DNA of 63,170 nucleotides, counting the filler, from Kipferlia bialata (taxonomy: Eukaryota), in assembly GCA_003568945.1 (NCBI GenBank). It is 7 parts of 7 records of this genome, joined end to end, with 100 filler letters (N's around TTAATTAATTAA, not from the genome) between each part and the next. Parts side by side here need not be neighbours in the genome. Positions count along the whole stretch, not along the records: positions 33,409 to 43,273 come from BDIP01001543.1; 6 more parts are not named here. One strand, written 5' to 3'. Position numbers and translations under genes: made by a program. This document shows, piece after piece, positions 1 through 62,300 of the stretch. The notes beneath the pieces were generated by a model. The model saw nothing but the letters and a program-made list of their open reading frames with translations, had not been told where the DNA came from and made no database searches. Numbering within the stretch: the stretch's first letter is position 1; each line of letters starts with the position of its first letter.

Positions 1-47
<47 letters not shown>

Positions 48-87
48 GTGTGTGTATGTGGCTGTGTGTGTGTGTGTCTTACCCTAG

Positions 88-6000: not shown

Positions 6001-9000
6001 TATGTCCCTATAGCATGTCTTAACTCTATACTACGACTGCTTACTCCCTTACTATTATCTTGTTTCTTCCAATTCACATAGGATGGAGCCCATATCATTG
6101 GCTGGCAGGGTTGGGATCACTGGGAGCAGCAGTCCCCACAGCACATTGTGGAAGGAGTGAAACGATGCCGTGCCAGTAATGGCTATAGGGTACGGGTAAA
6201 CACCTGGCTTTGCGTGAGAGATGGTTGTATGCGATTGTGTGATGCACAAATATGATATGTGCCATTAATCCATAACAGTGTTACTGCTTGACATCAGTTA
6301 GAGTTTTTTGTTGGCGTGGAGCTTGGGGATGATGTCAGTTCTCTGTCAGCAGCCCTGCTCCAGCTGCCGGATCTAAGAAGGGTGGGTACATGTAAACACC
6401 CACATGCACTTCATACATATCTACATGCCACTCTAATCGCGCTGTTCCAGCTACATGTTTACTACTACACTCAGAGCATTTCACTTAGGGTGAATACCTC
6501 CTTCAAGTAGGAGAGGAAATGTTTACATACATACATGTAGTTATATTTGTATATATGTCTATATATAGTATTGTATCAAGCATGTACATGCTGTGGATCC
6601 AGGTTAACTGAGGCAACTTCAATAGTTGATTCGTACATAGTAAAGCCCTACAGTTAGTAATACCTCAGTTGTAGAAGCATAGATGGTATAATCTTATGTC
6701 AGCTGAGTCTTGTGGACTGCATCAGAGGTCCAGCCTTGGAGACACTTGTCAGTGCTATTAGGAATTTGACTAGCCTCCAATCGGTATGTCAGCAGTATAT
6801 ATATGCCTTGAGCTGTTGGCTTTCTGAATACCTGGTCTGGTCTATGAGTCTGACCCTCTTCTGTCAACATACACATGCTCTCTAGACCTCGAACTGTATG
6901 GATACTGTGTATGCAGTCGGTATATACTCCACATATACACCTATCCACACGTTTTCTATAATCAAGTTGTCTTCAACTAATAGTAGCTGGATCTGAGTTT
7001 GAATGACATGTGTGATTCAGTGGCTTCCCAACTGGCTGAGTCTCTATCCAGCCTCAAAGGCCTTAGGACGGTGAGTGATACATGGAAGTGATACCGTGTC
7101 CCCAACAATGTAATCTACTAATCTGATTCAGAGACTGTGTTTTTTACAACTGTATCTGTGCTCAAGAGTGAGTGTGCCATCGTTACATTCATGTCAGTTG
7201 TCGCTGCAGGGGAACTCAATAGGAGACCCTGGCGCTATAGCTCTGTCCAAGACCCTTCTTCAACTGAGAGGCCTCACAAATGTTAGTTCCCCGTTAGAAG
7301 TAGTTGAATATCTATATCTGGAACAGTATTTTTCTTCAATGATTCCATTCTGATATATCTGTCATAATTGTACAACTGTGATGTCTCTTCCGCTCTCTAT
7401 CTGTGTATATGAGAGTTTATGCTATGTCTCCACGTCCAGTGGTTCCCCCTACCTACTTTGTAAGTGTAAGTGTGTGCATTAGAATATGTTGTATACATAT
7501 GTTACATGTCAATGCAAATGTATTCTTCAGAGGGACAGTTCGTCAAGACCTACATACCACGTGATCTCTCATACAAGGATTAATCTCTCTATGCCACCCA
7601 ATATGCATACCTGACTTTAACATCACATAATTCATTAGCTTCACAGAATTCATGTGTATATACTATTCATATATATAAACATACCTGACATTAGCTTGAA
7701 ATGGAAGACAACCGCATTGGCCATGATGGTACTGTAGCTATGCAGCTAGCGATGGCCCACCTGCCAAAGCTTCAGGTCAGTGGAAGGCTTTTGTTACTAC
7801 TTTCTCTGTCGTTTATGCAGCCAATATGTCAGTAACCTGCAATTATCTGATCATAGCAATCTCTGTTTCTATCTCTGTCACATTTCAAGAATTTCCTGGA
7901 CAGAGTCTCTCATTTAATACACATATCTATTTCCTTCTCTCTCACCCAGTCTGGCATGTGCGCTGGTATCGGATGGCAAGGGTGGGATATGTGGGAAAGG
8001 GAGTCACCGGATGAGGTTGTGGATATCATGAGAGCTTGGTTGGGTGGTGAGGATCTCTCTTGCGTGTCCCCTCTTGCACGTAGGATGATGCAGAAGATGG
8101 ACGGAGACACCCACGACATGGACCAGTTATTGGAAATGTCAGTGGAGCGAGACTCGTGTAGCCAGCTGTCCCTTTCCGGTCACTCTATTGGCGATGAAGG
8201 TGTTGAAGCTGTCGCCAAGATCCTCCCAAAGCTACTCGATACCTTAGAGGTTTGTACATGTGTGTGAATACACTTTGGAGTAGTGTCCTTCTGGAAATTG
8301 TAACTACAAGACATGTTGTTCCTATTGATGTACCTACCATGTTCTTACTGATTTGGTCATATCTAGCAGGTGACATATATATACTTTTAGTATGGATTGC
8401 TTCATTGCACTAAACTAACCCAGCTGGACCTCAGCAACACTGGTATGTCAGATGCTGGTGCTGTCGCATTGGCTGGTATCCTTGCTTCCCTCAGGAACCT
8501 CCACAAGGTATGGTCGATGCAACAGCTCCATTAGGCCCTTACCCCAGTTCCGTCTGCGTATAATGTGTGTTGTGGTGATATTATGAATCGGTGGCACCTG
8601 CGAAGTGCCTCAATTCCCCTCTCAGCGAGTTCTCTCACCCAAGTTGGATCTCAGCAACAACTGTGTTGGTCATTCAGGGTCCGTAGCAATCTCCAAGGCT
8701 CTTGAACGATTGAAGAGTCTTCAGGAGGTGTGTAATATTATGAGTTTGTAAACAATTATTTGATCATATTAATATGCGTTGAGATGTTTGACCTTACCAC
8801 AGTTCTCGATTGAGAACAACGAGATAGGACCTGCAGCGGCTCGTTATCTTCACGAGGGACTCTCACGGGGGCCTCGTATTAAGGTAAGGCACAGACATGT
8901 TTCTAGGTCTCGTATACAGGTGTAAACACGTTGCTGCTAGTTTTGGTGGTCCTGCCACTGTGGGGTAAACATGGGAATGTATCTAAGTCCAGCTTGAGCT

Positions 9001-9888
9001 TGGACATCAGAGGAGAAGGCTTCAGAAGAAGCATCTGAAGAAGAGAGAGAAGAAGCAACTCAAGGAGAGGACGAGAAGGGAGAAGACGAGAGTAGAGAGA
9101 GAGAAGAGGGAGAGAGAGATGGAGAGACAGAAGAAGGAGAGAGAGGAGAGAGAGAGACTCGAGAGGGAGAGGAGAGAAGCGAAGGAGAGAGAGAGGAAGG
9201 AGAGAGAGAGGAAGAGAAGTGAGGAGGAAGAGAGACAGAGAGCAGATCGGGAGAGGCTCGAGAGAGAGAGAGAGCAGAGAGAGAAGGAGGAGAGAGAGAG
9301 GAGAGAGAGAGAGGACGCTGAGTATCTGAGATTGCATGGGAGAGAGGAGATTCAATCGCTGAAGGAGACGAATGCCAGTCTCCGGAGTGACCTGGAGACA
9401 GAGCGGAACAGAGCAAACCAGGCTGAGATAGAGAATGCCAGGCTCATGGAGAAGGTTGCTACCCTTGAGTCTACGTTAGAGAGAGAGAGGGACAGGGAGA
9501 GAGAGAGAGAGTTTGAGAGACAGAGACAAGCAGTCGAAGTGGCAGCTCTCAAGAAGGAGGTTGCTATTCTCAAGGACCGTAACCAGACCCTCTCAAAGGT
9601 ATTGTCAAATGTCTGATCATCCTAACTATACTAGTAGTACATTATACTAAGTGCATGGCATGTTCATTAATAGTATGTGACTTCATATTTGCGTCCATGG
9701 TTGTGTGATTGTGTTACACAGATCACTTTCTGTCTCTCACCCCAGGCCGCATCCAAGCCAGCGAGACTCTCCCACTCAGAGCTAGACCGTCTAGTGAGCA
9801 TCGAGATTGAGAGGAGGGAGAGGGTGGAGAGACAGAGGATAGAGAGAGAGCAGAGGGCCGCAGAGGAGGCCGAGCGTGTGAGGCAGAG
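88..9888 (+). CDS. Large multi-exon leucine-rich-repeat protein (ribonuclease inhibitor/NLR-type 28-aa LRRs) with Trp-rich spacer exons and a C-terminal Glu/Arg coiled coil; both ends truncated
   Basis: Phase-0 exons of about 84 nt each encode one LRR. Examples: 982-1065 LFFSSVQLVDKDIEVLSESIGRLKDLKE, 1864-1947 LNLGLVGMTDTGAAALAEALPYLTNLEM, 2114-2197 LYIFRNKIGDSGARAMAKTLPRLTGLKT, and the exon at 4010 LILSHNEIGDEGAMDLAVALPQLPSLKS. Spacer exons start at 88, 2651, 4381, 6082 and 7950. Coiled-coil exons are 8993-9598 and 9746-9888. GT-AG boundaries throughout. Confidence 0.9.
9011..9530 (+). repeat. (GA)-rich low-complexity tract encoding an ERERE-type charged coiled coil
   Basis: Purine-rich AG/GA runs are in frame within exon 8993-9598 (ORF 9119-9616). 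Confidence 0.85.
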
Positions 9889-35719: not shown

Positions 35720-36852
35720 ATGTCTCTGCCGTGGTATGAAAGGGAGAGGGAGAGAAGAGACAGAACACTGCAACTGGAGAATGCCACTGTATCCACGGGG
35801 TCTCACCCCCTTGGTCCACCTCATGGGCTAGGGTAGTGTCCACAGGGCATGACACATTTATAGCTATACAGAAGCAGGGGGAGGTGGATGTGTTCTACCA
35901 GTTCAGGCTGGACTCTGAGGGGAGTCTAGTGTGTGGTGACTCGTGGACACTGGCTGCGTCTTGGTTGGGAGGCAGCCGTGACAACATGGTATACATAGGG
36001 GGAGAGGTGCTGTCATATGTAAGGGAAGATGCCGCACCTACACGTGGTATCCACATACTCGATGCTGCGGATCCAACCCGTGGAGTACTCACTCAACCTA
36101 GGGCACACACACTCTCTCGTGGCACTGATGGCCGGACAGAGACGTCTGATCACCTCTCCTACACCGGTATCCTTTACCCGTGCGTGCTTGATGATCGAGT
36201 TGTTGTGTTTGTAAAGAGTGAAAGATCGACTGAGACTCTGGTCCGACAACTTATCGCACATCTATACTATCCAGAGAGCAATGCGTGGGCTGTAGATGTG
36301 GCTGAATGGAACCCCTACCATTTTTCGCTCGGCCCGTGCACTGTTGTCCACGGAGTGCTACACGTCTTCGACCTAATACTACGCCATCATTACACATACA
36401 CTCTGGATAAGGGTTGGAGAAAGGATGTACAGGTACCTAGAGGACTCTGTAAACGCGCGGAGTACGTGTTTGGTGCTCAGGTATCTGATTATATATCACT
36501 GGTAATAATATGACATATTGAATATGCTAAGATCTCACTTATCATATCTAATAGATATTATCTATATACTTCTCATTTTCAGAGTGTTGGTCGCCTGATT
36601 GTGCTGTTTCTGGAGAAGGAGTATGTAGTGTTACACGACACCGTCAGTGGCGAGTGGTGTGCTGTGGAGTGGGTTAAGCACCAACACAGAGAGTGTGTTA
36701 AACTAGGGGAGGGACAGTTTGTCCAGGTAGTGCGTCGTGGGATTGGCCCTGATGCTGCAGGGTGTCACGTATCTGTAGTGACTCTCAATGAGGCTCTGAT
36801 CTACCCCAGTGAGCAGATGGGGTGGGTGTGTGAGATTTATTGGACACAGTAG
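35720..36852 (+). CDS. Divergent kelch-like beta-propeller protein; 5' end unresolved (possible frameshift)
   Basis: ORF 35836-36480 splices (intron 36481-36582) to SVGRLIVLFLEKEYVVLHDTVSGEW...LNEALIYPSEQMGWVCEIYWTQ*. Kelch-like motifs include LYYPESNAW, CTVVHGVLHVF, YTLDKGW and HDTVSGEW. The upstream ATG at 35720 (MSLPWYE...) is in another frame and stops at 35836. Confidence 0.65.
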
Positions 36853-37170
36853 GTATCTGAGTCTGCTCAGTAGAAAGAGAACTCATTTGAAACACTGACA
36901 AGTTGTGAGTCACAAGTTTTGACTCACAAAACATAATAGACAACTGGATTGTGAACTATCTAAGAGTACTAAATCGTCTATTAGAGACTGGAACCGAAAC
37001 CTACGTAAGACTTAGGTCCTAAGTTAGGAATGATAGAGAATATTCCGGGCGCCTGTGAATACACTTGACTTCACAGGTGTCCATCATGTGGACATAAGAT
37101 CATCCACCCCTGGGATACACGAAAGGGTCCCTCGAACCGAAAAGTGTCACCCAGACGGGATAAGTATAAA

Positions 37171-40100
37171 CTATACAGGTACTCTGGTCACTGGGTTTGG
37201 TGTCTTAGACCTGCGACTAGATGCCCTGGGGTCAGTATAGATATATATATACATATATATATATAGTATACACATATGCAGTATTATCATGATCGACTAG
37301 ATGCCCTGGGGTCAGTGTATAGAGTGTGTTCCACACAATACATATACTTAGACTAGTATGAATATGACAGAGAAGCATTGTTATGCAGAAAGTAAGATCA
37401 GACTGGTTACTCAAGGGGAAGCATACATTATATATATCATTCGAAACCTGCATGTAAACACCACCCTCACCCACAGGACCCATATACATACATATATGTA
37501 AACACCATACCTGTATGTGAACATCACTCCCACCCAGAGGATATATACACATGATGAATATATATATACACATATTTACATACACTTATACATGTCATGT
37601 TAGTGAGTGTACCTGCATGTGAACATGACCCCCATCCAGAGTGTCTATATACAAGAGGGATTAGTGTGTATACACTTGATATATGGGTAGTGTATATATA
37701 TATACTGTACCTGCATGTGAACATGACCCCCATCCAGAGTGCCACTGCCCCATACCCACACAGGGCCCATAGGGTGACCTAGGTATTAGGTGCAGATATG
37801 CAGTATGAAAGACTGAATCAGAAAAAGAGAAACAGAAGACTATAGTCATTGAATGATGAATTCCCACAGGGCCACAACAACCTAGTGATAAGGAAATTAG
37901 TGAAATAGTATATATATATGCAGTCATCTGTCTTTGTATACTAAACTGGCAGACATCAGCTTACCTGGTATGACTAGGTACACACAAACCCACATGTATG
38001 TATATATATATATATTACAATTATATTTATAAATATATAGGTATTATACCTGGTATGATATGCCACTGCTGCTGGGTGCAGACTCCATCCAGTAGTCCTC
38101 AAGGTAGGACATCCTGGTGGTTAGTGCATTGAAATATGTGATGATCAAACCTTAAAATTTTTGATATATCAATGTGTATATATATCATCCTCACCTCCCA
38201 TCAGTCATCAAAGTGACTAGTGTATCACTCTCATGTTAGTGAGGGTAGCACATATACATATATATAGAGAGAGAGATACACTATATCAATTGTATATATA
38301 CCATCCTTATTATACCTCCCGTCTGACATCAAAGTGATGCCTCATCAGTACTTCTAATGTTCTCGATACATATATAATTCACTATATTGTATAGTACTCC
38401 CAAGTGAAATACCTCCCATCAGTCATCAAAGTCACCAGTGCCTCATTCATCGAGTCCAATAGGTCAGTCTCATCCCTGGACACCACGCTGTACACCTGCT
38501 GCAGCTCGGCAACCTAGAGGTTACGACATAACTATTGAGTATATATGTATATATATATATGGATCTATCTATACTTGAACACCACGCTGTACACCTGCTG
38601 CAGCTCGGCAACCTGAGGTTAAGAGGCATCCAATACAAATATACAAATACAAGTGCACACACATATGTATGCATAAATGCACTTCCCTGCCTCACTGTGT
38701 ACACACACATCTGCCTGTGTGTATACGTTGATACCTATCGATATAGATATATATACATATACATATATACTATCCCTACCTCGCTGTGTACACACACATC
38801 TGCCTGTGTGTATGCGTTGACACCTATGCATACATATATATACTTGTATACATACATACATATATATATATATACCTATACTATCCTCACCTCGCTGTGT
38901 ACACACACATCTGCCTGTGTGTATGCATTGACACCAATTGAAATGGAGTCAAGGTCACCAGAGCATGCAACGATGGGGGGGTCTGGGATGAGAGTATGTA
39001 CATACTGTTACACTATATAAAGCATACTTCCTTCAATATATATGTCGGTTCATGACACGATTAAGGTTTCTGCGATGAGTGTATAGAACAGGTGTACTGA
39101 ATATGTACACATACACATACATATATAAATACAGCAGAGTAGTATAAGTGTATCCTCACCCGACTCAAACAGAGTACTGAAGCAGTCATTCAAAGATACT
39201 TCTGGTTATGTACGAGTAGTATGGCATGTCACATACACTATGCACATTACCATATGTATATATATATACAGAGTCACCCACCTGACTCAAACAGAGCACT
39301 GAAGCAGTCATCGAAGGACTCCTCAGGATAGTCAACGGGGGCTGCACCCTCATCCAGCAGCCAGTCCCAGAAGGAGTTGCCAGACTCGGCTCCTGAAACA
39401 TTAGACACACACACATATATATAATTTATCATATATAGGAGGGAGAGAGAGAGGATTCAGTACCCAGTCCCAGAAGGATGTTGCCAGACTCGGCGCCTAA
39501 CATATTAGAAGGAGCAAAATATATTCATATAGGGGAGAGAGAGAGAGACGTATCAGTAGCCAGTCCCACAAGGAGTTGACGGATTCAGCTCCTTGTGTTA
39601 CATATTAGAAAGAGAACTCTATAGAAATACAATGTTGGATATTACGATATTACCGCCACTCCCGCACATATATGCAAACACGTACACACACATATATATA
39701 TATATATATGTATGTAGGCCTCTCTCTCTCTCTCTCTATAAATATATATTCATACCTATCGCCACTCCCTCTAAGGAGTCCAGGCTGAATGTCCCCGTGC
39801 CCTGCTCCACACCCTCCAGTGTGACAGCAGACAGATACAGGGCGAGAAGGATAGCGGAGACCTGAATATTAGGGTCTAAATATATACCTAATATGTATAA
39901 TCATAGATGTATAGAGTGACGGCAGACAGGTACAGGGCAAGGAGGATGGCTGAGACCTATCGGTTAGTGTATAGATATATATATAATGTAAAATAAGAAA
40001 TGTATAGGGCAGCAGATAAATAGAGGGCAAGGAAAACGACAGAGATTAAGGGTGTCAGTATACATATGACATATATAATGGGAATCTCTACTCAGTATGC

Positions 40101-43100
40101 ATACCATGTTGTGTATGAGTGCCACCAGTCTTCCTATATATATATATATTTTCCTATATATATATGGACAACTGAATCCATACACACACTATATATATAG
40201 AAAATGGCGCGATTATATATACACTCTCCCTACCATTGTTGTCTATGAATACCACCAGTATGCCGATATTATTTGTAGCCACATATAACCAATCATAGAT
40301 ATATAGTACATGCGCACAAGTAGTATATGTACACATATGCACATATATATGTACCAACAATACCATACTGTCTATGAATACCACCAGTCTGCCATATATA
40401 CTAGTAGACCACTCTATCCATACATAAATGTTTAGTGAATATGCTATAATCATTTCAGTGTCTGTCCATACCACACTGTCTATGAATGCCACCAGTCGAG
40501 ATGTATATACTAATACACTACTTAATCCTGGAATATACCTCATCAATAGATATACCATGGGACACTACATACCATGCTGTCTATGAATGCCACCAGTCTG
40601 CCCCAACATACTTATGGACATATCTACTCACACATACATACTATATATACATATTTCTACATATATCCATACCATGCTGTCTATGAATGCCACCAGTCTG
40701 CCCCCACTGGTCCTGACCTTGTCGGGGCTCCAGCCTAGTATGTAAGGGTATACTATATATATGATATATATATATATATGAGGTATACTGTATATACACA
40801 CTTATATGTATATATATGTATACATTGAATGTATCAGTCCTGACCTTGTCGGGGCTCCAGCCTGGTACATAAGATCTAGGGTACATATAGATATTTACAA
40901 ACGCTTACCCACACACTACTCATTCGCACACTAGAGAGTACACTATCAGTAACACACCTAGCATACTGACCCACAGCATGAGCAGGGCACTGCTACTATA
41001 TGTACATACTATATCACAATATATATATATTAATATCCACATGAAGGTATACATAATTACTTGGAGAGAGGGAGAGAGAGAGAGAGAGGGAGAGAGACAG
41101 TACCTAGCACACTGACCCACAGCATCAGCAGAGCACTGCTACTGTACTCCTCCCTTCTGGCCGCACTGCTGCCATAGTACTCACACAGGTACCTGTTGTG
41201 AGAATGACAGGTTACTATATATGTATACTATATATATGTAGTATGTGGAATATATGTGTGACACTTCGTACTGGCCGCACTGCTGCCATAGTACTCACAC
41301 AGGTACCTGGCATGAGAATAATGTAATAGTAATGTACATACAGACACTGTAACAATAGAATACTCTCATCTGGGTACTAGTCATATAGTACTAATAAAGT
41401 TACCTGTTGTATGTCTATCATGCAAACATATGAGAATGTATTTTGTATGTACGTTACAAACTGTTATCGTTATAATGATGTGTATATCCGTAATGATCTT
41501 TCACTCACTTGACATTGGTCAGTATCAGGTGGGTATGTATTAATATGAATACTGTATGAATAAATACATATATACACTAATCATAGTAGTCACACTCACA
41601 TGATATTGGCCAGTATCAGGGTATTATACACTCACATACTGCATATACATCGACAGGAAGAATCTACGGCTAAAGAAAATAGTATATATATATATATATA
41701 TATCTATATCCTACACTCACATGACGTTGGCCAGCACCAGGTGGGACAGCAGGATCATACACATTCATGAGTATATATAGTATGAGTATATTTATATATA
41801 TACAATATAAGTACACTATAACCATATACTCACATGACATTGGCCAGCACCAGGTGGGACAGCAGGATCATACACATTCATGAGTATACATGTATAGTAT
41901 ATATAGTATGAGTATATATATACTACATTAATATACACTATATATATATACACATACTCACATGACATTGGCCAGCACCAGGTGGGACAGCAGAATCAGG
42001 GCAAAGATGTTGACGGCTGGGGATCAGTGCATCACAATTAAGGTATAGTACATGTATGAACATATATACATTGATAAACACATCTCCAGTGGGCTCCAAG
42101 AGAGGAAATAGAATATAGAAAAAGCAAAGATGTTGACGGCTGGGGATCAGTGTCAGTGAGGGTGTTGTGAATACATAAAACGATATATATATATATATAC
42201 ACCATCACATATGTACCATACTATGCATACGTACACACATGAATATACATTGTATTATACGTACCTAGAGCACTTGTGATGGGTGCAAAGATGTCCCAGT
42301 CACTGGCAAGGCCTGGGGTGGGGGGGATACCCTTTAAAGTCACACATATATAGATAGCCATATTAATAGATGGAGAACATAGATGCATGACGGATAACTG
42401 ATACGACAACCACTCACTCTCGCATGGGACTGCAAATGCAATGCCTGTCTCGTGGAATGGCACAGTGTATCTGGGGTCAGAGAGGTAGAGAACGGTATGA
42501 TACTATGTAAAACTATTATATAATATGAATATATATAAATTATTATATTATATATATAATTATATATTAGTATATATAAAAAGAACGAGAGTGTCGGATG
42601 TTGGACAGTAAATCTGGCAAGAGACATTTAGGTATATGGATCATTGAACATTGAATTAGTGCGTACACACATATACATACACATATATGTACATATGCAC
42701 CTATATATATATATATCATATTGACTACGCATTGGGAATCAATGTATGTATGTATACCTGACATATACTATATACACAATAATAATGAAGAAATAATAAT
42801 ATACTATTGAAAGTGTCAATAGCTTTATAGCATACTACTGATGTATACCTCACGTTCTTATACACCCTGTCCTCATAGAGTGACACACTGCTGAGGAAGG
42901 CAGGGTTAATATATATACACACACACACCCATATATATATATACATATATATAGACTATATATTACTATACCTCACGTTCTTGTACACCCTGTCCTCATA
43001 GAGTGACACACTGCTGAGGAAGGCAGGGTACTGGTTGGCAGCAACGGCGTCAACGGCCTAGTATAAGGGTGATATACTAATATGTAAATATATAGGTAGT

Positions 43101-43167
43101 GTCTAGTAGAGACATATAACATGCCCTACCTCATCGAACGACAGATCGGCACAGGTCAGCTCGTAGT
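37171..43167 (-). CDS. Ionotropic glutamate receptor-like ligand-gated ion channel (S1-M1-M2-M3-S2-M4), 5' truncated, 14 exons seen
   Basis: Spliced translation: YELTCADLSFDE|AVDAVAANQYPAFLSSVSLYEDRVYKNV|RYTVPFHETGIAFAVPCE|SLASDWDIFAPITSAL|AVNIFALILLSHLVLANV|MYLCEYYGSSAARREEYSSSALLMLWVSVL|GWSPDKVRTSGGRLVAFIDSM|VSAILLALYLSAVTLEGVEQGTGTFSLDSLEGVAI|GAESGNSFWDWLLDEGAAPVDYPEESFDDCFSALFES|DPPIVACSGDLDSISIGVNAYTQADVCVHSE|VAELQQVYSVVSRDETDLLDSMNEALVTLMTDG|RMSYLEDYWMESAPSSSGISYQ|VTLWALCGYGAVALWMGVMFTC|RASSRRSKTPNPVTRVPV*. All junctions are GT-AG and in phase. The domain order matches iGluR/GLR channels. Confidence 0.85.
37290..42910 (-). repeat. About 30 intronic partial copies of flanking exon ends ('exon echoes') in TA-rich filler
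   Basis: Examples: 42849-42907 copies the end of exon 42972-43057. Four copies of the M1 exon end lie at ~41834, 41719, 41600 and 41510. Five copies of the RLVAFIDSM end lie at ~40572, 40469, 40363, 40233 and 40103. 39912-39956 copies the start of the M3 exon. Confidence 0.9.
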
Positions 43168-43273
43168 CTGGGGGGTGAGTATATAGTGATCATTACTGTA
43201 CACCACACATATACAGATATAGGGTAAGAGAGAGATGGGGGGGGGGGGGCATGTCGTATAATAGTCTCGGGAG

Positions 43274-43561: not shown

Positions 43562-44548
43562 GTCAACGATGACCTGGACACAGACTCTCTCTCTCTCTCT
43601 CTCTATCTGCATATAGATATTTGCTTGTATATCTTGTCTCACCTCAGGTCAATGATGATCTGGGCACATACTTTGATGTGTACTGCTCGCTGGACGGGTG
43701 AGTATGCATAGTAACAGCACTTACATCCCACACCTCTCTCTCTCTGAGAGAGTCTCTCTCTTTGCTTTCTCATACTCTTCTTTCTCTCCCAATCTTTCTC
43801 TGTACGGGGTGATTGTCTCTCATCCAATCGCTCTCTCAACCCAGTTTTCGACATCTTGTTCTTCGCTCTCTCTCTCCCACCCACCCCAGCTCCTTCATCT
43901 CTCTGTTCGAGGCTGTCAACCAGGACGAGTGGCCATTCCTCATAGGTATATATATACTATATATATATATATATACATATACTTGGTATAGAGTATGTGT
44001 GTGTATCTATATCTATGTCTGTTCGAGGCTGTCAACCAGGACGAGTGGCCGTTCCTGATAGGTATTTATAGGATGTATATATATTGAGTGTGTATATGTT
44101 AATCATCAGGCAATATCGTTAATCTGAGAGGGCGTTGTACATTTCATCACAAGCAGAGTAGCTGATCCGAGCTGACATTCCACCAAGCACATATTTCCTT
44201 CTCCCCCCGCCTCTTTCTCTATCTCATGTCTATTAGGCATACTATAACTATATATACACTTATATAGAACTATATATATAATTATATATAATAGTATTAA
44301 TAATTATACTACAACACCAGGAGCCCAGTTGTCTCTCTCCTCATCTGTCTCTCTCTATTAGCTAATATCTGTTAAAGCTCCAGGCGCCTTTGCCACCAAG
44401 CCCAGCAGTCCCTCCACCTCCCTCTCTCCCCCAATATGAATACATATATATATACCTTATCCCTAGGCGCCTTTGCCACCAAGCCCAGCAGAGTATCTCT
44501 CTCTCTCTCTCTCTCTCTCTCTCNNNNNTGCCACCAAGCCCAGCAGAG

Positions 44549-44598
<50 letters not shown>

Positions 44599-47500
44599 CT
44601 TCTAACATCTAGGTGCCTTTGCCACCAAGCCCAGCCGAGTGGCCCTGGCAGACTACATGCTCAACATCAACCTCAGCAGCAAGAGTACGTAATTACCATG
44701 AATGTTTGTTGACTCTTCAAGATATATATATGAGCTTTTGTCCCCATCTAACCCATGCCTGATTTCCCCCTGTTCCCTCTCTCTCTCTCTCTCCCCCTAT
44801 TACTCTATCTAACCCATGCCTTATTGTACCCTGTTCCACATCGGTGTCAGGCTTTGCAATGTTCGCACCAATGTAAGTGACATCCCTGTATATGGTGCAT
44901 ACGTCTATACTACCCTTTCTCCCGCTCTGACAGATCTATGTTTGTATCAACCACCTTGTCCACGCCACTCTTTTCCCGCTCTAATGTCCCAGGTTCGAGC
45001 CCCTCTCTGTCAATATCTTTGCCATGATGATACTGGTGCATCTGGTATCAGCCAATCTGGTGTTCCTCACAGGTACTCTTCACCCGCCCTTTCTCATTAT
45101 GTAAATATTACTTTCACATTGAGTTTCTGCACGTAAAGTCTTCCCTGAGTTCTTGAACTCCACTCTTATATATATAGATCTATATACATAATACATATAC
45201 CCTTTTGGCAGAGCAGTGTGGCTCGTCCCTGAGGAACACATGACCCGTTGCATGCTTCCATGAACGATATACATATATCAAGTGTGTGTACATGTATACT
45301 AACAATACCAGAGTACTTTGGGTCCACATCGCTGAGGAAGACCATGCAATACTCCAAGAATGGACCCATCATGTTCTACATGGCATTCATAGGGTATGTG
45401 ATACATGTATATACATTATATATATCTAATAGGTATATATACTATATATAGATAATACATATATATACCATATATACACACTACATCTGCAGGAGTGGAC
45501 CCATCATGTTCTAGATGGCATTCATAGGGTGAGTTTGTATATGTATTTATACATATATATTAGTATCGTAACTATACTGTAATATATACTGTATATGTAC
45601 CAATGAATTGATATATGCATAGTACTCCAAGTATGGACCCGTCATGTTCTACATGGCATTCATAGGGTATGGACATGTATATATATATACATATTCTATA
45701 TATATACTATATCTCTAGTATGTATATATGTGCTATATATACGATATATACATACTACATATGCAGGATTGGACCCATCAAGTTCTACATGGCATTCATA
45801 GGGTATGTGATATGTGTGTATATATATGCTGTATATAAACTATATATCTTGTATGTGTATATACCATATATACATACTACACTAGCAGGAATGGACCCAT
45901 CATGTATACATGGCATTCATAGGGTATGTGATACATGTGTATATATTCTATATATCAAATATATATATATATATATATATACTATATATAGGTACTGCTA
46001 TACTGCACGAATGGACGGACCCGTCATGTATACCTCCTCCCCCCAGGTGGGACCTCAACAAGATCAACACTAGTCTGGGACGGTTCATCATGTTCATAGG
46101 TGGGGTATACATACATGTGTGTATATATTTACATATATTTATATATATAATGTTCATAGGTAGGGTATATATATATATATATATATACATACTTAATGCT
46201 TCGAATTGGATAGAACATGATGTGTCCACCTTTACCAGTCTGAGACGGTTCATGTACAGTAGAGTATAAATTCAAACGTAGATATACATATATGCATGTA
46301 TGATGCTCATAGGATATGTGTACCAAGAATTCCACTATATAGTATAGACACAGACTCTTCGTTCTCTCTTCTCTATACTATAATATATAGCTGTCTCACC
46401 CTTAGATGTCATGCTGGAGACTGTCCTCGCGGCATATTCATGTATAGTACCATAATAGTACGCTGCTCTACATATTTGTTTCTCTCTCCATATATATGTT
46501 TCTCTCTCCATATATGTGTTTGATTCACATATACTTACAGTAGATGTGATGCTGGAGACTGTCCTGGCTGCATACTTCATAGGGTCAGTCACGGCATCCA
46601 CAGAGGTGGGTATATCAAATAGACTAGTATATATAGTAGGGTATATATACCTATGCACTATTAGCTTCACACTTCATAGGGTCAGTCACGGCATCCACTG
46701 TGGTATATAAACACCTGATATATTGAGATATATATGTATCTCTTCACATGTCTCACCCCAGCTTGGCATCAATGTCAGCTTCAGTTGCATTATACATACC
46801 TCTCTCACCTTCTGTATCGATATGGATGTGAATATCCTCAATTGTATACTAGTAAACCTCTCACCCTCAGCTGGGCATCAATGTCAGCTTTAGTGTGGAC
46901 ACGGCCAGTGACTTCACAATAGGGTGCAGGTACACATCCATGATATATAGTAGTATATATATATGTAGTATATATATATATATATATGTATACATAGGTG
47001 TGTGACACCGCCAGTGACTTCACAATAGGGTGCAGGTACATGGTGGTATAAGTAGAGTGTTAGTATCGTGCAACATATAGTGTATAATTATTATAATTAT
47101 TCTCGTGTAATTGTCTTATTCTCAGAGCCTCCTCGTCTGTGGACCAGGTGGAGGAGTGTACTCTATCTCTCTTTCTCTCTCTCTCTTACCCTATACGTAC
47201 CTATATACTTACTACCAGACCCTCCTCGTCTGTGGATCAGGTGGAGGAGTGGGGGGCAGACTTAGTCTTGGTGGACAGTACAGGTGGGTGTATTTATAGT
47301 ATATTGGAATACGAGACTTACACTTTGTTCTCACCCCTAGAGGAGTGTGCTGCCCTTATCAATGTGCCTATTGCAGATGGTGGGGTGGATGCGTGTCTAG
47401 GGTATGGATATGGATATGCAATTGTACTATGTATATATGTATATACCTATGAGACTATATTGAGAGATATAGTATATATACATGTCCGTAGCAGATGGTG

Positions 47501-48077
47501 GGGTGTATACTTGTCTGGGGTATGAACTTACCCAATACGTATTCGTGTATGAGTGTGGTGCCTCTCTGTGTTTCGGTCCCTATTCTTCGTCTCTCCCTCA
47601 GACTCACTCTAGATCCTATGAGCCCCTTGCCTACCTCCAGAACCACGTATTATCTCTCTCTCTCTCTCTATCACTTACACTTAGTTCCTATGAACCCTTG
47701 GCCTACTACCTGCAGAACCATGCTGGGGATGGACTGTGCATATACGATGAGACACTCGTACCAGGTGTGTATACATATATATGTATACCTATATATATAT
47801 ATACATGTATATAGTGGTGTACTATACTTTTGGAAGGACTGTGCATATACGATGAGACACTGGTGCCAGGTAGAGATGAAACTATATGTTATTTCTCTAT
47901 AGCACCTCTCCTACTCTCTTTAACCCTTCAGGCACCCGCACCGGTGCTGTGAACTTTGCATACCCAGACCTAAGGAGGGATATAGATGGTAGGGATGAGT
48001 ATATACAAATCAAATTTTTTTTTCACATATAGAGTTGTTTGAATTGATATACATACAGGTATACCGAAGGACACGTT

Positions 48078-48108
<31 letters not shown>

Positions 48109-48640
48109 ATGTATAGGTATAAATATGCACCCTCCCCCCAGGTGTCATTGTGTGTAGAATGATGGCAGGATGTACGTATCTCTCTCTCTCTACTTATCAA
48201 TACAATTCTTTTCTTTGTTTCTCTCTCTATATATACACCCTCACCCCAGGTGTCATTGCGGCCATGCAGGATGACGGCAGGATGGATGCACTCGAGGAGA
48301 AGTGGTTCGGAGGTATGTAAACATATATACCAACTGGCAATGTGTATATATGTTGAGATAACTAACCCCCAGGCCTTGATGCTTATATGCTCCTGGGCAG
48401 CGTCTCTTTCTCTCACTCGCTCTCACTCCCCCGTTTGTCTTTACTCTATCATTGTGTGTATACTAACCCCCAGGCCTTGATGCCGATATGCTCCTGGGCA
48501 ATGACACAGCCAGTGTCTCCATGGAGGTATGTACTATGCACAGGCATTATATATATAGTGGATTATACATTTCCTTAGGTATGCGGGTATGTGTGGTGTA
48601 TATGTATTAATGGCACAGCCAGTGTGTCCATGGATTTATG
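43562..48640 (+). repeat. Intronic partial copies of flanking exon ends ('exon echoes')
   Basis: Examples: 43562 (VNDDL), 44022-44061 (FEAVNQDEWPFLI|gt), 44383 and 44467 (ag|GAFATKPS), four to five GPIMFYMAFIG|gt copies at 45495-46030, 46406 (ag|DVMLETVLAAY), 46762, 47010, 47126, 47490, 47612, 47836, 48142, 48373 and 48613. Confidence 0.9.
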
Positions 48641-52742: not shown

Positions 52743-53069
52743 ATGGCAGGGAACAGACGTCCCTCCATCGCCCACACCCCCCACCCCAACCACCCGTCTG
52801 ACACACCGTCTGATGGGGTGAGGGTGTATGTGCGTGTGCGGCCTGGCCTCAACGGGGAGGTGACGTGTGTGGAGGGGCACGAGGACATGGAGTCGGTGGT
52901 GGTGACCAATATCGAGAAGGGGGAGGGGGAGAGTGAGGGTACGAAGAAGAAGGGGAAGAGAGGGAAGAAAGGGAAGAACATCCACGCCATCACCTGCAAC
53001 GTGGGTGTGTATGACCCCAGACAGTTCCAGTTCGATGATGTGTTTGGACCCACAGCTACGCAGAAGCAG
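52743..53069 (+). CDS. Kinesin motor domain, first exon (rest beyond contig end)
   Basis: GVRVYVRVRP and RQFQFDDVFGPTATQKQ are canonical N-terminal kinesin motor motifs. Donor GT at 53070. Confidence 0.9.
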
Positions 53070-54076: not shown

Positions 54077-57000
54077 CTAATAGTACCCGCGTCTCCTGTC
54101 TCTTTCTCTTCTCTCTTCCCTCCGTCTCTCAACCTCAGTGGCTCGTGCGTGTCCCTCAAGGTATCTGGTATCCGCTAGTAGTAAGTATAGGGGGGTTAAT
54201 TCGCAGTGAGACAGGCAGGCTGTCCCTATATACTCCCCAAAGCGGAAGTGTTAAGAGACCCAACAACATATATATACAATGGCTTGTATGTGGTAACGGA
54301 TATAGACAAGGGCACCAGCACCCACTCACCCCTAGCCAATGCCTCGTCTGCGTCCCATAATAATAATAATAATAATACAATAATATAATAATAATATAAT
54401 AATAAGCATCACCTCTACCCCTTGCCTCGTCTGCATCCCACCTAGGCAGGGTGAGGGAGGTGTCTCCAAAGAGCAGCTGGGTGTGAGACGATACAGACAC
54501 ATAGTCTACATACACTGTATGTCATAGAGACACTTCTATGTTGAGTGGGCAGGATGAGGGAGGTATCCCCAAACAAGAGCTGAGTGTACACATAGCCAGA
54601 TCAGTATACATAGTTTGTTGTTCACTTAGCAACACTGTACCTCACTGTTCAGGGTCACTATCCCATAGGTGGGGGATTCAGCATGATAATCGTCGTTCTC
54701 TGGAGTTATACTTATCGCAAAGAACATGACAACAACGAGCGAATACATATACATATTCGGGATGTATCTGCTAATTGCCACGGTGTTTCGAATAGCGTGT
54801 AACGACGTACTGTGGGGAGTGAATGCGACTAGTACGGACACCGAGTCGTCAGAGACGGAGTAGAGAGTGACATGGGGTTCTCTGAACATGTGATCAGAGA
54901 GAATCATAGCGATAGGTATACATATATAGTATAGATGTAAACGCAATGAGTAAAAGACGGAATACTAGAGTGCATCCCATCACCTTTCCTCCATGTCCAC
55001 AAACTCTCTCTCACTTCTCAACCACGACCGGCGCTCCTCTCTCTCTCTCTTGCTGCGCTTCGGGAAGAGATGCCCTATCCTGTACCACTCACCAGACGCA
55101 CAGTCATACAGACAGGCCTGGGTTAATACACGCAGAGAGAAGACATTGACGAGTGTAAAATGCAAAGATACACTCTCATACTCCCTGACACATAGTCAAG
55201 CAGGCTACAGGTCCAGAATACAATATGAGTAATATGATATATACATGTCTATACACCACACCTCTTTGGGCACACTTCCAAGGGCCAAGATCTTCTGCCC
55301 TGGTAGCTGGAAGTCAGTGGGTGGGGTATGAAGTATGTCTATACTATCAATGCAACTCGTCCCGTACCCCCACCAAGTCTCCCTCAGGTCTCAGCATCGA
55401 CCCATGGACCACTTCATCAGTCCACTTGCACCCTGTCTCACCCCCATTACCATAGATGAGGGCCATGGTGATGTGGTGATGCTCCGCCCTGAGATGAGTG
55501 ACTCTTGATAACTAGTATATCAATACGAAGGGGTTGACATTCAATAATGCAGTCACCTCGCAGTCCTGGGTTGGTACCCGTATCTTCTGTTCTCCCCAGT
55601 GACCCTGGCTCTCTCGGCCTCTCTCTCTCTCTCCTCAGGAGTCAAGGGGATCTGGTAGGTGTGGAATATGTGCAAGGTATCGTCTACCACAGCATGGCTG
55701 ACGGTGAGATCATGGTAAACAGAACTATTACATATAAACAATACTACTGATGTAGTAGTAGTTATGGACAGAGAGCGTGGCTGGCAGTGATTAGACATTC
55801 ACTATACAACAAAAGATTCTCTCCCACTAGCATCATTACTCAGATAAGTATCAAACCAATACCACACCTGTTGCAGCCTGTTCCCACTTGGATGTGTGCT
55901 GGAGTGTCAGGGAGGGGGGTCCACATGCTGTGGTGAGGATGATTTAGAGAATGATGATCCGACATCATAAGATTGCTCTTTTGCTGATAGGGAGGTGGTC
56001 TGTATCCCAAGTACCTAGTCTCTGGATCGTAGAGTGACACCGCAGAGGAAGGTGTGTCCTCAGGTGGCAGAGGGGGAGCATTATCCCTGAGTGAAAGATG
56101 AACAGGAACATACACCAACTGCTACCCCAACACACATTATCGAGAGACATACTCAATATGTAGGATTACTAGTACAACTACTCATACCTAGTTGTGTCAT
56201 TCACCTTGGGCTTGGTATAGCCGCCTAGCAACACAAGCTGAGAGTCAGAGAGCAAACTCTTGCTAGATACTATCACACACCCTATTAAACCGTGGACACG
56301 TACCTTCCCCTCCAGACAGCATGTGATGGGGGCATGAGCGGGAGGCGGCCAGAAGGACTGGTACTGAGGATGTACATCACACACCCTCAACCACTCCCTT
56401 CTCCTCTGGGCAATCTCTCTCTCCCTCTCGAAAACACCAGGGGCCAAACGCGCATATCCGTCCACACCTTTATCATCCCTAAGTAACATGTCAAGGAAGA
56501 TACTCAACTTGGCACGGACGCACGCTATTCTGGCCGATGTAGCTAATGCCTCGTCCTTGTGACACTCGCAGTCAAAGTGACTCATATCATCGGGCACTGG
56601 GTCCTCTGTCCCACCCTCCTCTTCCAGCCTCTTGACCAAGGTCTCAAGGCAGGAGAGAAGCGGCACAACACGGTCTCGATTCTGAATCTGGGGTCATATA
56701 CGGTGACTTCACTCAGGAATGACACTAACCAGTGACAATGGGATAGACCATATATAATGAGTTGCTGTTAGTCATAGTGAGCACATGGGAGAGTACCATC
56801 AAAATAGAAGTCTCTATACAAGTATACTAATCATGCTAACCATAAAGGAGTATTCCTTTACGTGACGGTTCCTGTCTCCCTCTCTGGATCTCAACTCATC
56901 AGGGGTTGGAAGGTCGATCTCTCCCTCACTGCGTCGCCTCTCAACCTCAGCCAGCAGTGTTGTCCTCTGCATGTCAGGCAGAGTGTATACAGACAAGTAA

Positions 57001-58530
57001 TTAGGGATACTAGGAAGTAGTATGTAATTCACGCTCAAATATACCTTGTTCCTGATGGTCCAGTCTTCAGTTGGTATGTCGTACTCAAACAGATAACTCT
57101 GCTCCCTGGAGATGCCTACATAGAGGACCTTGTCCAGCACTCGGCACACACAGAGATTGCCTGGACATGAGAGAGTTACTACATATATACTATTAGAGGG
57201 CCACACATCGGTTGTAAGGGGACATATCTATTACTATCTCGACAAAATCCACACAAATACCTATATTCATACTTGAGCTTCTATGACGCCATACCATCTG
57301 AGCCTAGCCTGAATGGGAATTGGTGAAGCACGCGTCCTCCCATACGCCTAGTATGTCTAGTATGGCGGTATGGGAGGTGTGGCCTCTCTGTGTCTGGGTC
57401 ATCTGTCTCTGGGTCCGTGTCCCTCTTGACAATGCGTCTATACCATGCCTGAGGGGTGAGCACTGGCAATCAATTATCTATTCTGAGAATATATACAGTA
57501 AAGGGCGCAGCCTATCACATAATCTGGTACCCTGTGGTCCCAATTGTACTCCAACGTCTCGTGCAGCGTGTACTTCTCCTGAGAGGTCAGTAGCAGATGT
57601 AGTATCACTAATTGTATCTTCAAATATATGAGAGAGAGCGTGTGTGTACAGAATACTCAGTATGACAATTTTCACCATCATACCTCACCATAGCCTCAGG
57701 CGACAAATGTGGATGTCTGTGGATGAACAGAGATATATGTGTGTGGAGGTGTAGTTACCTGGGATCTCTGACCACGGCCTACCCGAACACCGGTGTCACC
57801 TGTGTCCATCTGGAGTCAGAGATAGGTACATTCATATGATTATGTACTGATTAGATACATGATCTTACCAGCATATACAACATACTGCAGAGGGGGGACA
57901 TATCCATCAGGACTAGGGGGGAGGGGGGGAGGCACCAACCTGACACACCATGACACCCTTGTGACCTATGTTAGTCACTGCCATGGGCTTGGGATCGTTC
58001 CGTTCACTGATGTTAGAATGCAATGGAATACAATGAATACCAACCGTAATCATACCAGTCATAGACCGAGGTAAAGAGAATACAAAGCATATATGCTTGT
58101 GCATAGTGTATACTTGGCCACATACTATCGGAGCCAACTATCGGTTGAGTGAACGCCTTTCAACTCTCTGTAACCAATGAGGGGTGGGATACTGCGTCTC
58201 GGGAGAGGAGGTCGACGTGTTGCCTATTGGCATTAGGATGAAGTGGTTCAAGACAGGTGAAGCAGAGACAGAAAGATACATGATGGGGGGGGGTAGAGTC
58301 CGAGAGAAGAGGTATATCAAGATTCACACATACATATATATGTGAATATATATAGAGATACACCTGCATACACAAATGCATATATCAAGCCACAACATCG
58401 TACCACCCGGTGGCGCCGAACAAAGAACCAGGAGCATAGAGCGAGCAGCTTCAACCTCCTCTCTATCCTGTGCTGGAGGGAGAGGGCCCGTCTGCCTGCC
58501 TTCAAGGCATCAAAGGCACTGAGATGAGCT
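54077..58530 (-). CDS. Kelch-like repeat protein, paralog A of a tandem pair (start probably upstream, near 59100)
   Basis: Exons include AHLSAFDALKAG...VRRHRV|ATRRPPLPRRSIPPLIGYREL, EKYTLHETLEYNWDHR, NLCVCRVLDKVLYVGISREQSYLFEYDIPTEDW, FWPPPAHAPITCCLEGK|LVLLGGY, SLYDPETR, HAVVDDTLHIF, LYDCASGEWY and LLFGDTSLTLPRWDADEARGR|ADTRYLE...RRRGYY*. Confidence 0.7.
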
Positions 58531-59357: not shown

Positions 59358-62300
59358 TCAATATGCATATTGGCGGTATCGTCTGTCCCGCAGTCGTGCT
59401 TGCCTCCTGGTCTCATCAGCTCTCTCCTTAGCTGTATGTCAGAACAGAGCGATACAGGGAAGGCAGTATATTCCACAACATACACACACCTCTCTCCATT
59501 GCCTCGTCTGCATCAACAACATATACATACATATATATATATATATACAATGACTTGCATGAAGTAACTGACATGGAATAGGACACTAGACAAGCACTCA
59601 CCCCTTGCCAATGCCTCGTCTGCGTCCCATCTGGGCATGTGGAGTAAGGTATCGCCAAACAGGATCTGAGGGGGTGAGACGACATTAACACATTGCCTAG
59701 AAAACAACTGAGATGTGATGGTAGTGTACCCACCTCACTATTGAGTGTGACCACACCGTGTGATGGTTTGTCTCGGTGGTACGCATCACTCCCTGAATTA
59801 ATTAAATAATATTTATTTAATTAAGTAAATAAATTATTAAGTCAGTACAAGGGCAGAGAGAGACAATACGACTGGTAATGTACTCTCCTAGTAGTTGGTA
59901 CAGCAGCTACCTTCATGACGAGACTTGTCATCTATACTACGTACCGTCATGAACGAAAGTCACTAGGACAGACACGTAATCCTCTCCAATGAAGTAGATG
60001 GACATAGTGAGTACAGCAGCACTGAACCTGGAGGTGAGAGCCATTGTCCACTGGAGAATGAAAGACACATGTTGTCTCAAAGATAGCTGCGGCCTTGCCA
60101 AATCCCCCACCTTGAGTCAACACTCCTCCCGTCTAACGAACCGGAATCTAGGTACCAAAGAAGAGACTCCTCCTCCCTCTCACTTGGGTGAGGGAAGAGA
60201 TGCCCTATCATGTACCACTCACCGGAGACACAGTCATACAGACAGGCCTGGGTGTCAGCATGGGTACGTATATTCTTATCTCTCCATACCGACGACCGAA
60301 GTAACGGCTAACACAGCCCAACACCTCAGAACCCCATGCACATAGAAATAGTAGTATGGGTCGGTGTGCTTGGTACTATGTCTCCTCTCTCAAAGAAGTG
60401 ATATGCATGAAACAGTGTACACATTGAGACTGGGTCTGTACCTCCTTGGCGATATCCCCTAATGCAAAGATCTTGTGTCCAGGAAGCTGACAGTCAGCCA
60501 CGAACATGTGCAACTATTAAACAACGAAATGATACACTGATAACGTACCCCAACAAATGCTCCCTTTGGCAGGTAGTTGCAGTCGTCTACCACATCATTA
60601 GTCCACTTACACACTGTCTGTCCCTCTGTATATACCAGAGACAGGGTGACGTGGTGGGGCTCCAGCCTGCCACGTCAGTCGTCGTGACAGTGTGAGAGAG
60701 TACAATCTACACAATCTAAGCGTCCAGAGCGTACTTTGTGGTCTTGGGCGAGTCCCACATTGAAATATCCTCTTCACTCAGTCTATCTCTCTCAGCTTCT
60801 AGTGCCGCTTCATTAGGGGTCAGAGGGACCCAGCACCTTTGGAATATGTGTAATGTGTCATCTACCACCGCATGCCTATTAGTGAGAGTGATAAGTGACG
60901 TGTAAGGTATTATGGCTATCCTTACCCAAGACTGCCGTAACCGACTTCAATCCCAGCGGGAATGTCTGGAAGGGGGTACCAACAGCTAGAGATCAGAAAG
61001 AGTCAAAATCCACTCCACAAGGTGTCAATTGAAACACATATACGCTCCACCTTGTACCTTGTGTCCGGGTCATATAGTGACACAGAACGGGAGGAGTACT
61101 CATCTCCAGTCGCCTCGTCTCTAGTATATCCCCCGAGAATGACAAGCTGTTTGTAAGGACATAAGAAACACACTTTAGAAATGGGTTTAGCAGGAGACCA
61201 CAAGCATCAGGCAGTATCACCATGAAGTGGTCAGATACCTTCCCATCCAAACAGCATGTACGGGGGGCGTGGGCGGGTGGAGGCCAGAACACATGATACT
61301 TCGGCTCAGGGCCATCGCAGGCCTTCAACCACTCATGTACAAACTCCCCCCTCTCCCTTTCTTTCTCCAGCACTCCAGGACGAAGGATACTAATACTCTC
61401 TTCCCCACATCGTGCCCTGAGGTTGTCGAGGTTAAGCATAACCTTGCAACGGATGCAGGCTACTCTAACTGCAGTAGGCACTGAGTCATCTTTGTAATGC
61501 ACACAGAACATATGCTCTTCTTCATCAAGGAGTGGCATCTCTTTCCCCCCTTCCTTCTTCAGCTTGTCTAGCAATGCCTTCAGGGACACAAGCAGGTTCA
61601 GTACTCTGTTACGTTGCTTGATCTGGTAAATTAGTAATGTATATATTCAGTATATGGTATATACAGGTGATGCACTGGTACAATTGATCAGCAGACAACT
61701 AACCCGCATGGTATACGCGTCAAGGTGGTAGGTCCTGGAACTCCTTAGGCGTTCCCACTGCAGGGGGGTTAGGAGGTCAATCTCTCCACCCCTCCTCCTG
61801 ACCTCTGCCTCCTTCTGTATAGACATCATCTATCGTGAGGTAGGTCCTATACTAATGCAACTGTTATATTACAGGACAAAGTATATATCTTACAATGAGG
61901 TAAAGCAACCCCTCTCCATATACCTCATCCCTTCCGACCCACTCATCCGTTGGTATGTCATACTCAAAGAGGTAACTCTGTCTCGCGTCCTTAGACAGCC
62001 CTACATAGAGGACCTTGTCCTGCACACGGCACACACAGAGATGTCCTAGTCTGTGAGATACATATATATATACTATATTATATATATGTACACATACAGT
62101 GGGAGGAACCACCCAAAAGACCTACCATCTGCCCCTCGTCCTACTGTCTCCCTCCCATTGGGTATATGGGACTCAGGGTCTGTGAGGGTCTCTGTTAAGA
62201 CAGTGGTCCAGTACTGTGGTAAAGACATGATATCATGTAAATGAGAAATCTACAGTGTATCTGGTTATACAGGACTCACCCTGTCGCCCCAGTTGTAGTG

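Follow-up and report, generated by a model that had tools for sequence, protein, structure and literature searches.

Splice-anchored partial exon copies in the introns of two receptor-like genes of Kipferlia bialata

Boundary duplications in other organisms and the genes examined

The closest described counterparts of the intronic exon copies reported here, which we call echoes, are the mirages of amphioxus, tandem copies of exon-intron boundaries found in Adh3, in the globins BflGb6 and BflGb9 and in PGBD5, with splicing left intact (available text of PMC3087553 and PMC3902484). As in the echoes, the 5' or the 3' boundary is duplicated and many copies keep GT or AG, the mirage units being of about 100–160 bp. 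On the other hand, as far as the available parts of these accounts go, mirages are minisatellite-like and alike over the unit (81–100% in BflGb6), whereas the echoes nearest to an exon share with it only the exon part and the splice motif; moreover, in Kipferlia, both ends of most exons are affected and the copies are ordered by decay. The same parts of the two papers report no silent-site bias. Since likeness over the whole unit was not found (0 of 27 nearest pairs with alike flanks), we regard the echoes as a variant of the mirages rather than as a member of the class.

In vertebrates, duplications mediated by repair through synthesis-dependent strand annealing, filler included, have been described; like the echoes they are close, short and accompanied by filler, and they can copy exons and splice sites (available text of PMC2671141). 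There, the filler is of 1–68 nt and the duplications are scattered and proven against outgroup genomes, whereas the echoes have fillers of 39–134 nt and lie at the exon edges of two genes; a close donor and junction filler were found in 31 echo pairs. In Daphnia pulex, intron gain by break repair leaves repeats of 4–12 bp in the new introns and, as in the echoes, an AT-rich insert is bordered by repeated sequence from the end of the adjacent exon and repeated breaks lengthen introns (excerpts of PMC4202315). In that case the insert becomes a new intron, while the echoes are of about 12–60 bp and lengthen an intron that already exists. Tandem exon duplication can also give rise to mutually exclusive exons, for which whole exons with both splice sites are needed. 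These resemble the echoes in being neighbouring copies with mostly silent differences; by contrast, none of the 50 echoes covers 90% of its exon and the echo of the M3 exon, described below, is absent from the spliced contig. No published account of this pattern in Kipferlia emerged from a literature search that missed most subscription papers; the K. bialata genome paper holds 0 occurrences of 'duplicat', and the available portions of PMC5874029, PMC6679479 and bioRxiv 10.1101/051292 do not describe it.

The window, that is, the whole stretch of DNA analysed, is of 63,170 nucleotides and consists of 7 contigs joined by N linkers. Two receptor-like genes in it contain 42 of the 51 repeat pairs, the other intron-rich contigs having 0–6 each, and 7 kb of mostly intergenic DNA in the window had no echo-type repeat pairs.

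37171–43167, minus strand: gene 1, likely a glutamate-receptor-like membrane protein, 14 exons read, 5' part past the contig end
43648–48976, plus strand: gene 2, a distant paralog on another contig, 17 exons read, open frame of 370 codons

The exons of gene 1 form an open frame of 342 codons with a single terminal stop and GT-AG introns, and 28 echoes were kept in 10 of its 13 introns (counted by hand); gene 2, whose exon structure was read from the sequence alone, has 22 echoes in 11 of 16 introns. The exons are of about 40–110 nt in both genes. The two products are identical at 85 of 282 residues, with an alignment score of 318 where 200 shuffles gave no more than 60. They probably resemble glutamate-receptor-type channels, a family in which ligand-binding lobes surround three membrane helices and a pore loop; three hydrophobic regions lie at matching places, and the motifs may correspond to M1–M4. 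Database support is weak: one exon matched SBP_bac_3 with an E of 0.0065, below the cut-off, and amino-acid-binding proteins with an E of 0.65, while 14 of the 15 exon queries had no match in the Pfam search. Protein searches with the M3 exon gave 0 relatives among 57 candidates, and the sole match in another such search, the 922-aa repeat protein P0001, was judged spurious; the frame at 35740–36510 had no relative among 221 candidates. None of the 11 mapped intron positions is common to the two genes, one pair lying 1 nt apart, so that the intron positions of the two paralogs seem turned over.

Layout of the echoes

Aligning each exon by nucleotides to both neighbouring introns gave 53 matches, of which 50, in 21 of the 29 introns, were kept. 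The three dropped by eye (upstream of gene 1 exon 6, scores 30 and 24, and downstream of exon 10, score 26) lie within the background of 841 control alignments (maximum 30, 99th percentile 26); four kept echoes also score 24–30, and thresholds of 31 and 44 gave similar silent shares.

The echoes are anchored on the splice site: 47 of the 50 reach an exon end and 42 of these keep the GT or AG (downstream, 29 of 31 and GT in 26 of 29; upstream, 18 of 19 reach the exon start and AG is kept in 16 of 18). The share of the exon that is covered has a median of 0.48 and a maximum of 0.79, and is at least 0.9 in 0 of 50 cases; this, together with the splicing out of the M3 echo, speaks against the cassette archive within the gene that the initial annotation had envisaged. 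Echoes keeping GT or AG are decoys for gene prediction, and stop-free frames could likewise mislead; long ones pass through echoes and TA-rich filler at 47097–47525 (plus strand) and 40154–40564 (minus strand), likely by chance.

In the 31 nearest pairs the echo spacing is 109 ± 21 nt and the filler 74 ± 20 nt, ranging between 39 and 134 nt. The likeness between exon and echo stops about 7 nt past the donor or about 13 nt before the acceptor, and the flanks beyond the splice motif resemble each other no more than unrelated introns do (mean z 0.02, above 2 in 0 of 27 pairs), whereas control copies decayed by 10%, 20% and 30% gave flank mean z values of 3.9, 2.2 and 0.9, respectively, the 20% control consisting of 20% substitutions plus 10% indels. 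Flanks were still unrelated in seven pairs with at most one difference in at least 25 nt; these pairs call for new filler or later homogenisation. Compared with the flank on the far side of the echo, the filler is richer in A and T and alternates more between purine and pyrimidine (both P ~0.02). Copying of the filler from nearby DNA was unsupported, the longest local match being of 10.0 nt against 11.3 for unrelated introns, and a mobile element with a long target-site duplication was rejected, the filler-filler matches listed in the self-search of the window being simple repeats.

Divergence rises with rank off the exon across 9 arrays (rho 0.48, P 0.01), with the exceptions of gene 2 exon 3, which decays in reverse order, and gene 1 exon 11, which has no rise. 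In the introns with both kinds of echo (n = 10), a central core of 61–96 nt was observed in 6. The cores between the oldest copies have normal intron size, and such an ordering is expected of any local duplication. A constant unit length with a trade-off between echo and filler found little support (rho −0.22, P 0.23). Some echo-echo pairs are alike over nearly the whole unit, as at 38684–38859 (87 of 89 nt). This layout, with its unrelated filler, age order and gene specificity, is an odder feature than the silent lean discussed below: introns are seen growing outward from both exon edges by small repeated duplications in a free-living metamonad.

Two observations concern gene 2. Near-identical echo copies at 44469 and 44529 (44469–44549) lie on either side of a 5-N gap and are possibly a single copy that was assembled twice. 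Intron 3 (44685–44818, plus strand) has a frame-keeping end without AG, ending CTAACCCAT or a single base further on. This non-AG end, which, to judge from its letters, is possibly a non-canonical acceptor, is shared by the echo at 44745–44776.

The M3 exon and its transcript

The region around the M3 exon of gene 1 was compared with contigs of two sequencing runs, X1 (DNA) and X2. It is composed, in the direction of the gene, as follows:

40673–40734, minus strand: exon 7, spliced to exon 8; loose end of the spliced contig
40105–40607, minus strand: five echoes downstream of exon 7, all of which end at a GT
40044–40104, minus strand: 61-nt core starting with GT, with a branch-point-like motif, between the oldest echoes of exon 7 and exon 8
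40010–40038, minus strand: second, older and more decayed echo of exon 8, score 30 (top of the background), in register with the first
39912–39956, minus strand: nearest upstream echo of exon 8 (the M3 echo), 15 codons, with its own branch-point-like motif and AG
39862–39911, minus strand: TA-rich filler that contains an in-frame stop and ends in the used acceptor
39756–39861, minus strand: exon 8 (M3 helix), live copy; the X2 contig covers 39755–39862 with 0 other letters
39282–39392, minus strand: exon 9, spliced to exon 8; the loose end of the contig matches the exon version

Read from 39956 to 39912, the M3 echo differs from exon 8 at 8 third positions in 15 codons, all silently, and past these codons it reads YIYDYTY and then a stop; on re-alignment, its initial description, filler included, was reproduced in every point. 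In simulated sets of all 50 echoes, an echo with at least 7 silent changes and 0 replacements occurred in 0–3 of 300 under each of four mutation spectra. The pattern of the M3 echo is more than chance, but it is an outlier among the echoes. The five echoes of exon 7 have divergences of 0.03, 0.00, 0.07, 0.11 and 0.13 moving off the exon, and mostly replacement changes (2 silent : 8). The core at 40044–40104 is likely the earlier intron.

The RNA comparison covered a single 311-nt stretch around the M3 exon of gene 1. The X2 contig covers only exon 8 and runs, at its loose ends, into the end of exon 7 on one side and the start of exon 9 on the other; that X2 is an RNA source is a guess from its listing, and the spliced nature of the contig rests on this joining of exons 7, 8 and 9. 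Both echoes of exon 8, the five of exon 7 and the two upstream of exon 9 (39494, 39591) are skipped by it. Echo-specific silent variants, predicted in mRNA if echoes were used, were absent from this contig over the M3 region, although contigs can drop rare forms. Hence the main transcript leaves out the M3-region echoes, and splicing is undisturbed at this one checked region.

It was suggested initially, as one option, that echoes are still translated, and one might think of present or recent use as alternative exons or acceptors, as most of them keep GT or AG and upstream echoes differ from their exons by 32 silent to 11 replacement changes. If the splice site of the echo were used, the frame would remain open in 3 of 42 cases, all upstream echoes of gene 2; among them, the echo at 47613 differs by silent changes and a whole-codon deletion only, and is the best candidate for a translated echo, with a frame that would stay open if its acceptor were used. 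However, at the other 39 sites the frame would be closed or shifted, none of the echoes amounts to a whole exon, and the M3 echo and the surrounding echoes of exons 7 and 9 are skipped in the spliced contig, which makes translation very improbable.

An 878-nt DNA contig of run X1 spans exon 8 and both M3 echoes with 0 differences. X1 is possibly the source of this same DNA, and its contig shows contiguity rather than giving independent support. A second allele or a donor was not seen over the M3 region, where there is one DNA contig with 0 other letters (contigs drop rare variants). The contigs are short and, as in the case of the copies around the 5-N gap, alleles or repeats could have been stitched in tandem during assembly. 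This explanation is hardly credible in view of the X1 contig, of the presence in X1 of 0.96 of the 31-letter words sampled at 36700–43200, and of the partial exons on filler, the stops and the graded decay, which are unlike merged live alleles.

Silent and replacement differences and the origin of the echoes

The other echoes that were inspected individually are listed below.

42849–42906, minus strand: downstream echo of gene 1 exon 2, 1 difference in 58 nt
44018–44061, plus strand: echo lying downstream of gene 2 exon 2, with 2 silent changes
45487–46029, plus strand: array of five echoes downstream of gene 2 exon 6, a counter-example
46406–46441, plus strand: echo lying upstream of gene 2 exon 8, with 3 silent changes and the deletion of 1 nt
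46762–46785, plus strand: echo lying upstream of gene 2 exon 9, with 2 silent changes
47613–47645, plus strand: echo lying upstream of gene 2 exon 12, with 4 silent changes and the loss of one codon
47832–47869, plus strand: downstream echo of gene 2 exon 12, 2 silent changes and 1 replacement
48142–48172, plus strand: echo lying upstream of gene 2 exon 14, with replacements, a deletion of 4 nt and one codon turned into a stop, a counter-example

In the exon 2 echo, the flank after the GT is unrelated to the exon's own (z −1.2). The changes reported initially for the echoes at 44018, 46762 and 47613 (in the last case with its 3-nt deletion) were found again. At 46406, three of the four changes called silent are clear, while the fourth aligns as a 1-nt frameshift deletion, and at 47832 the two silent changes are accompanied by an edge replacement, D>E. 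These examples were silent-rich ones, and the silent trend proposed for the second gene does not extend to the exon 6 array, with 0 silent changes, 15 replacements, one stop and frameshifts.

The initial premise of mainly replacement differences in a dead tandem copy also proved mistaken. The null, in which a constrained exon and a dead copy were simulated and passed through the same pipeline as the real data, is already 40–48% silent, because the live exon adds only silent changes. With log-odds scoring, all 50 echoes gave 70 silent and 58 replacement changes (0.55, against 0.40–0.48 simulated), with P from 0/300 to 0.04. Under three trimmings, the silent share was 0.50, 0.58 and 0.49 for unique events and 0.50, 0.58 and 0.47 for per-pair counts, the latter against nulls of 0.40–0.46 and with P from 0/150 to 0.44. 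The excess over neutral decay thus stands in the log-odds pool and fades in some trimmings, and the description of the echoes as differing almost only at synonymous sites fits the M3 echo and a few others rather than the whole set; 10 of the 12 gaps shift the frame and 2–3 changes create stops. Eight of the 25 echoes with at least two differences are all-silent and three all-replacement.

The excess is found beside the exons. Exon-adjacent echoes had 42 silent to 24 replacement changes (0.64, P ≤ 0.007 in simulation), and distal ones 28 to 34 (P 0.17–0.59 against the null); this split was chosen after the data had been seen, and the direct contrast is borderline (P 0.05). Leaving out both M3 echoes, the pool was 59:58 (0.50). 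The cluster bootstrap interval was 0.38–0.71 for all echoes, which includes the null, and 0.48–0.78 for the exon-adjacent ones, and the excess silent divergence was 0.055–0.10 (0.036–0.079 without M3) in the exon-adjacent and about 0 in the distal echoes. The silent lean of upstream echoes is stronger than that of downstream ones (38:47; P 0.0015, or 0.06 without M3), for which we offer no explanation. Changes private to one echo were 18 silent and 22 replacement, set against a neutral share of 0.25–0.30 as a descriptive comparison, and G<->C changes were 15 silent and 5 replacement, with a silent share of about 0.34 expected. A modest silent excess above the null is likely real, partly driven by M3 and dependent on trimming.

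Part of these results would be explained if the echoes were plain tandem duplicates, dead on arrival, with flanks decayed by slippage and a silent lean due to the constraint on the exon and to the picking of examples. The pool without the M3 echoes is close to the simulated share, the distal echoes match the null, the bootstrap interval includes it and some arrays are alike over nearly the whole unit, as at 38684–38859. On the other hand, the excess in the exon-adjacent echoes and the rarity of an M3-like echo in simulation (at most 3 of 300) disagree with this explanation, and the pairs with 0–1 differences and unrelated flanks would need the flank to decay at least 10 times faster than the exon-like part. 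We consider it a rather doubtful, though serious, possibility.

Ongoing gene conversion between echo and exon, which would keep the exon-like part alike and indirectly purge harmful replacements from the nearest echo, agrees with a likeness that ends at the splice motif and peaks beside the exon, and with a silent excess that sits in the nearest echoes. But frequent conversion would wipe out the 8 differences of the M3 echo, the nearest echoes still hold 24 replacements and some frameshifts, and no echo variant is found in the transcript contig, so that this process appears unlikely. The chances are smaller still that paralogs of the receptor family were the source of captured echoes or exon ends, an event that would bring unrelated flanks and silent divergence together. 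Both hot genes belong to one family, the divergence of the M3 echo is paralog-like and the G<->C changes lean silent; by contrast, no other contig matched the M3 exon at 80% likeness, where an 82% copy could be missed, genes 1 and 2 cannot be mutual donors, as 0 of 11 intron positions are common, many echoes are identical to their own exon, and echoes occur in unrelated genes too.

The explanation that we favour, with about even confidence, is that the echoes are dead copies of exon ends left by the repair of DNA breaks, and that the residual silent lean comes from allele differences. A break near the edge of an exon would be repaired by copying across the splice site, and the copy would be joined with about 40–130 nt of AT-rich filler; only those events whose leftover falls inside the intron would survive, and each new event would adjoin the exon and displace older copies towards the middle of the intron. 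Metamonads have been reported to be without Ku70/80 and DNA-PKcs, to lack Ku-dependent end joining and to rely on homologous repair (available text of PMC8516963). The remainder of about 4–10 silent changes per 100 silent sites in the exon-adjacent echoes would likely be ordinary allele differences: either the repair template may have been another allele, or the exon may have been swapped later by recombination or conversion while the echo stayed unchanged. An excess of 0.04–0.10 per silent site would be about that of allele differences in a large population.

Capture from diverged alleles had been one of the initial proposals, and the exon-adjacent excess fits it, with the limit that this excess depends on trimming and is partly driven by M3. 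Against the allele view stand the one DNA contig of the M3 region with no other letters, and the seven near-identical pairs with unrelated flanks, unexpected for a strongly diverged allele. Moreover, silent divergence is not raised in the distal echoes, where an allele origin would lead one to expect some excess, and the M3 echo, with 8 silent changes in 15 codons, needs far more divergence than 5–10%. If the allele reading is true, the echoes would allow estimates of past silent diversity and recombination from one protist sample. They would also offer a direct way of testing if duplications of this kind shift introns or give rise to new ones, the two paralogs having no intron position in common.

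A more tentative proposal is that exon ends in these genes are repeatedly replaced from diverged alleles, the displaced old ends being pushed into the intron. If so, the intron would be a polarised, time-ordered record of former alleles of the exons on either side, with the most recent at its edges and the earlier intron in its centre, readable from one haploid sequence.

In the rest of the window, single echo-like pairs are found in other genes at 16974, 29266, 51476, 53325, 54326, 54445, 58506, 59483 and 62826, with the same spacing (67–125 nt); therefore, the process is not limited to receptor-like genes. Six echoes in other genes have the same mix of identical, silent and replacement positions, their frames being judged by eye. 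A leucine-rich-repeat gene at 1–9888, with many short exons and a charged coiled-coil tail, had 0 echoes found. The start of a kinesin-like gene lies at 52743–53069 (plus strand; weak Microtub_bd match, E 0.045) and is truncated where the contig ends. At 54268–57193 and 59539–62076 there are two diverged copies of a gene, next to each other, which share short blocks that are 72–85% alike.
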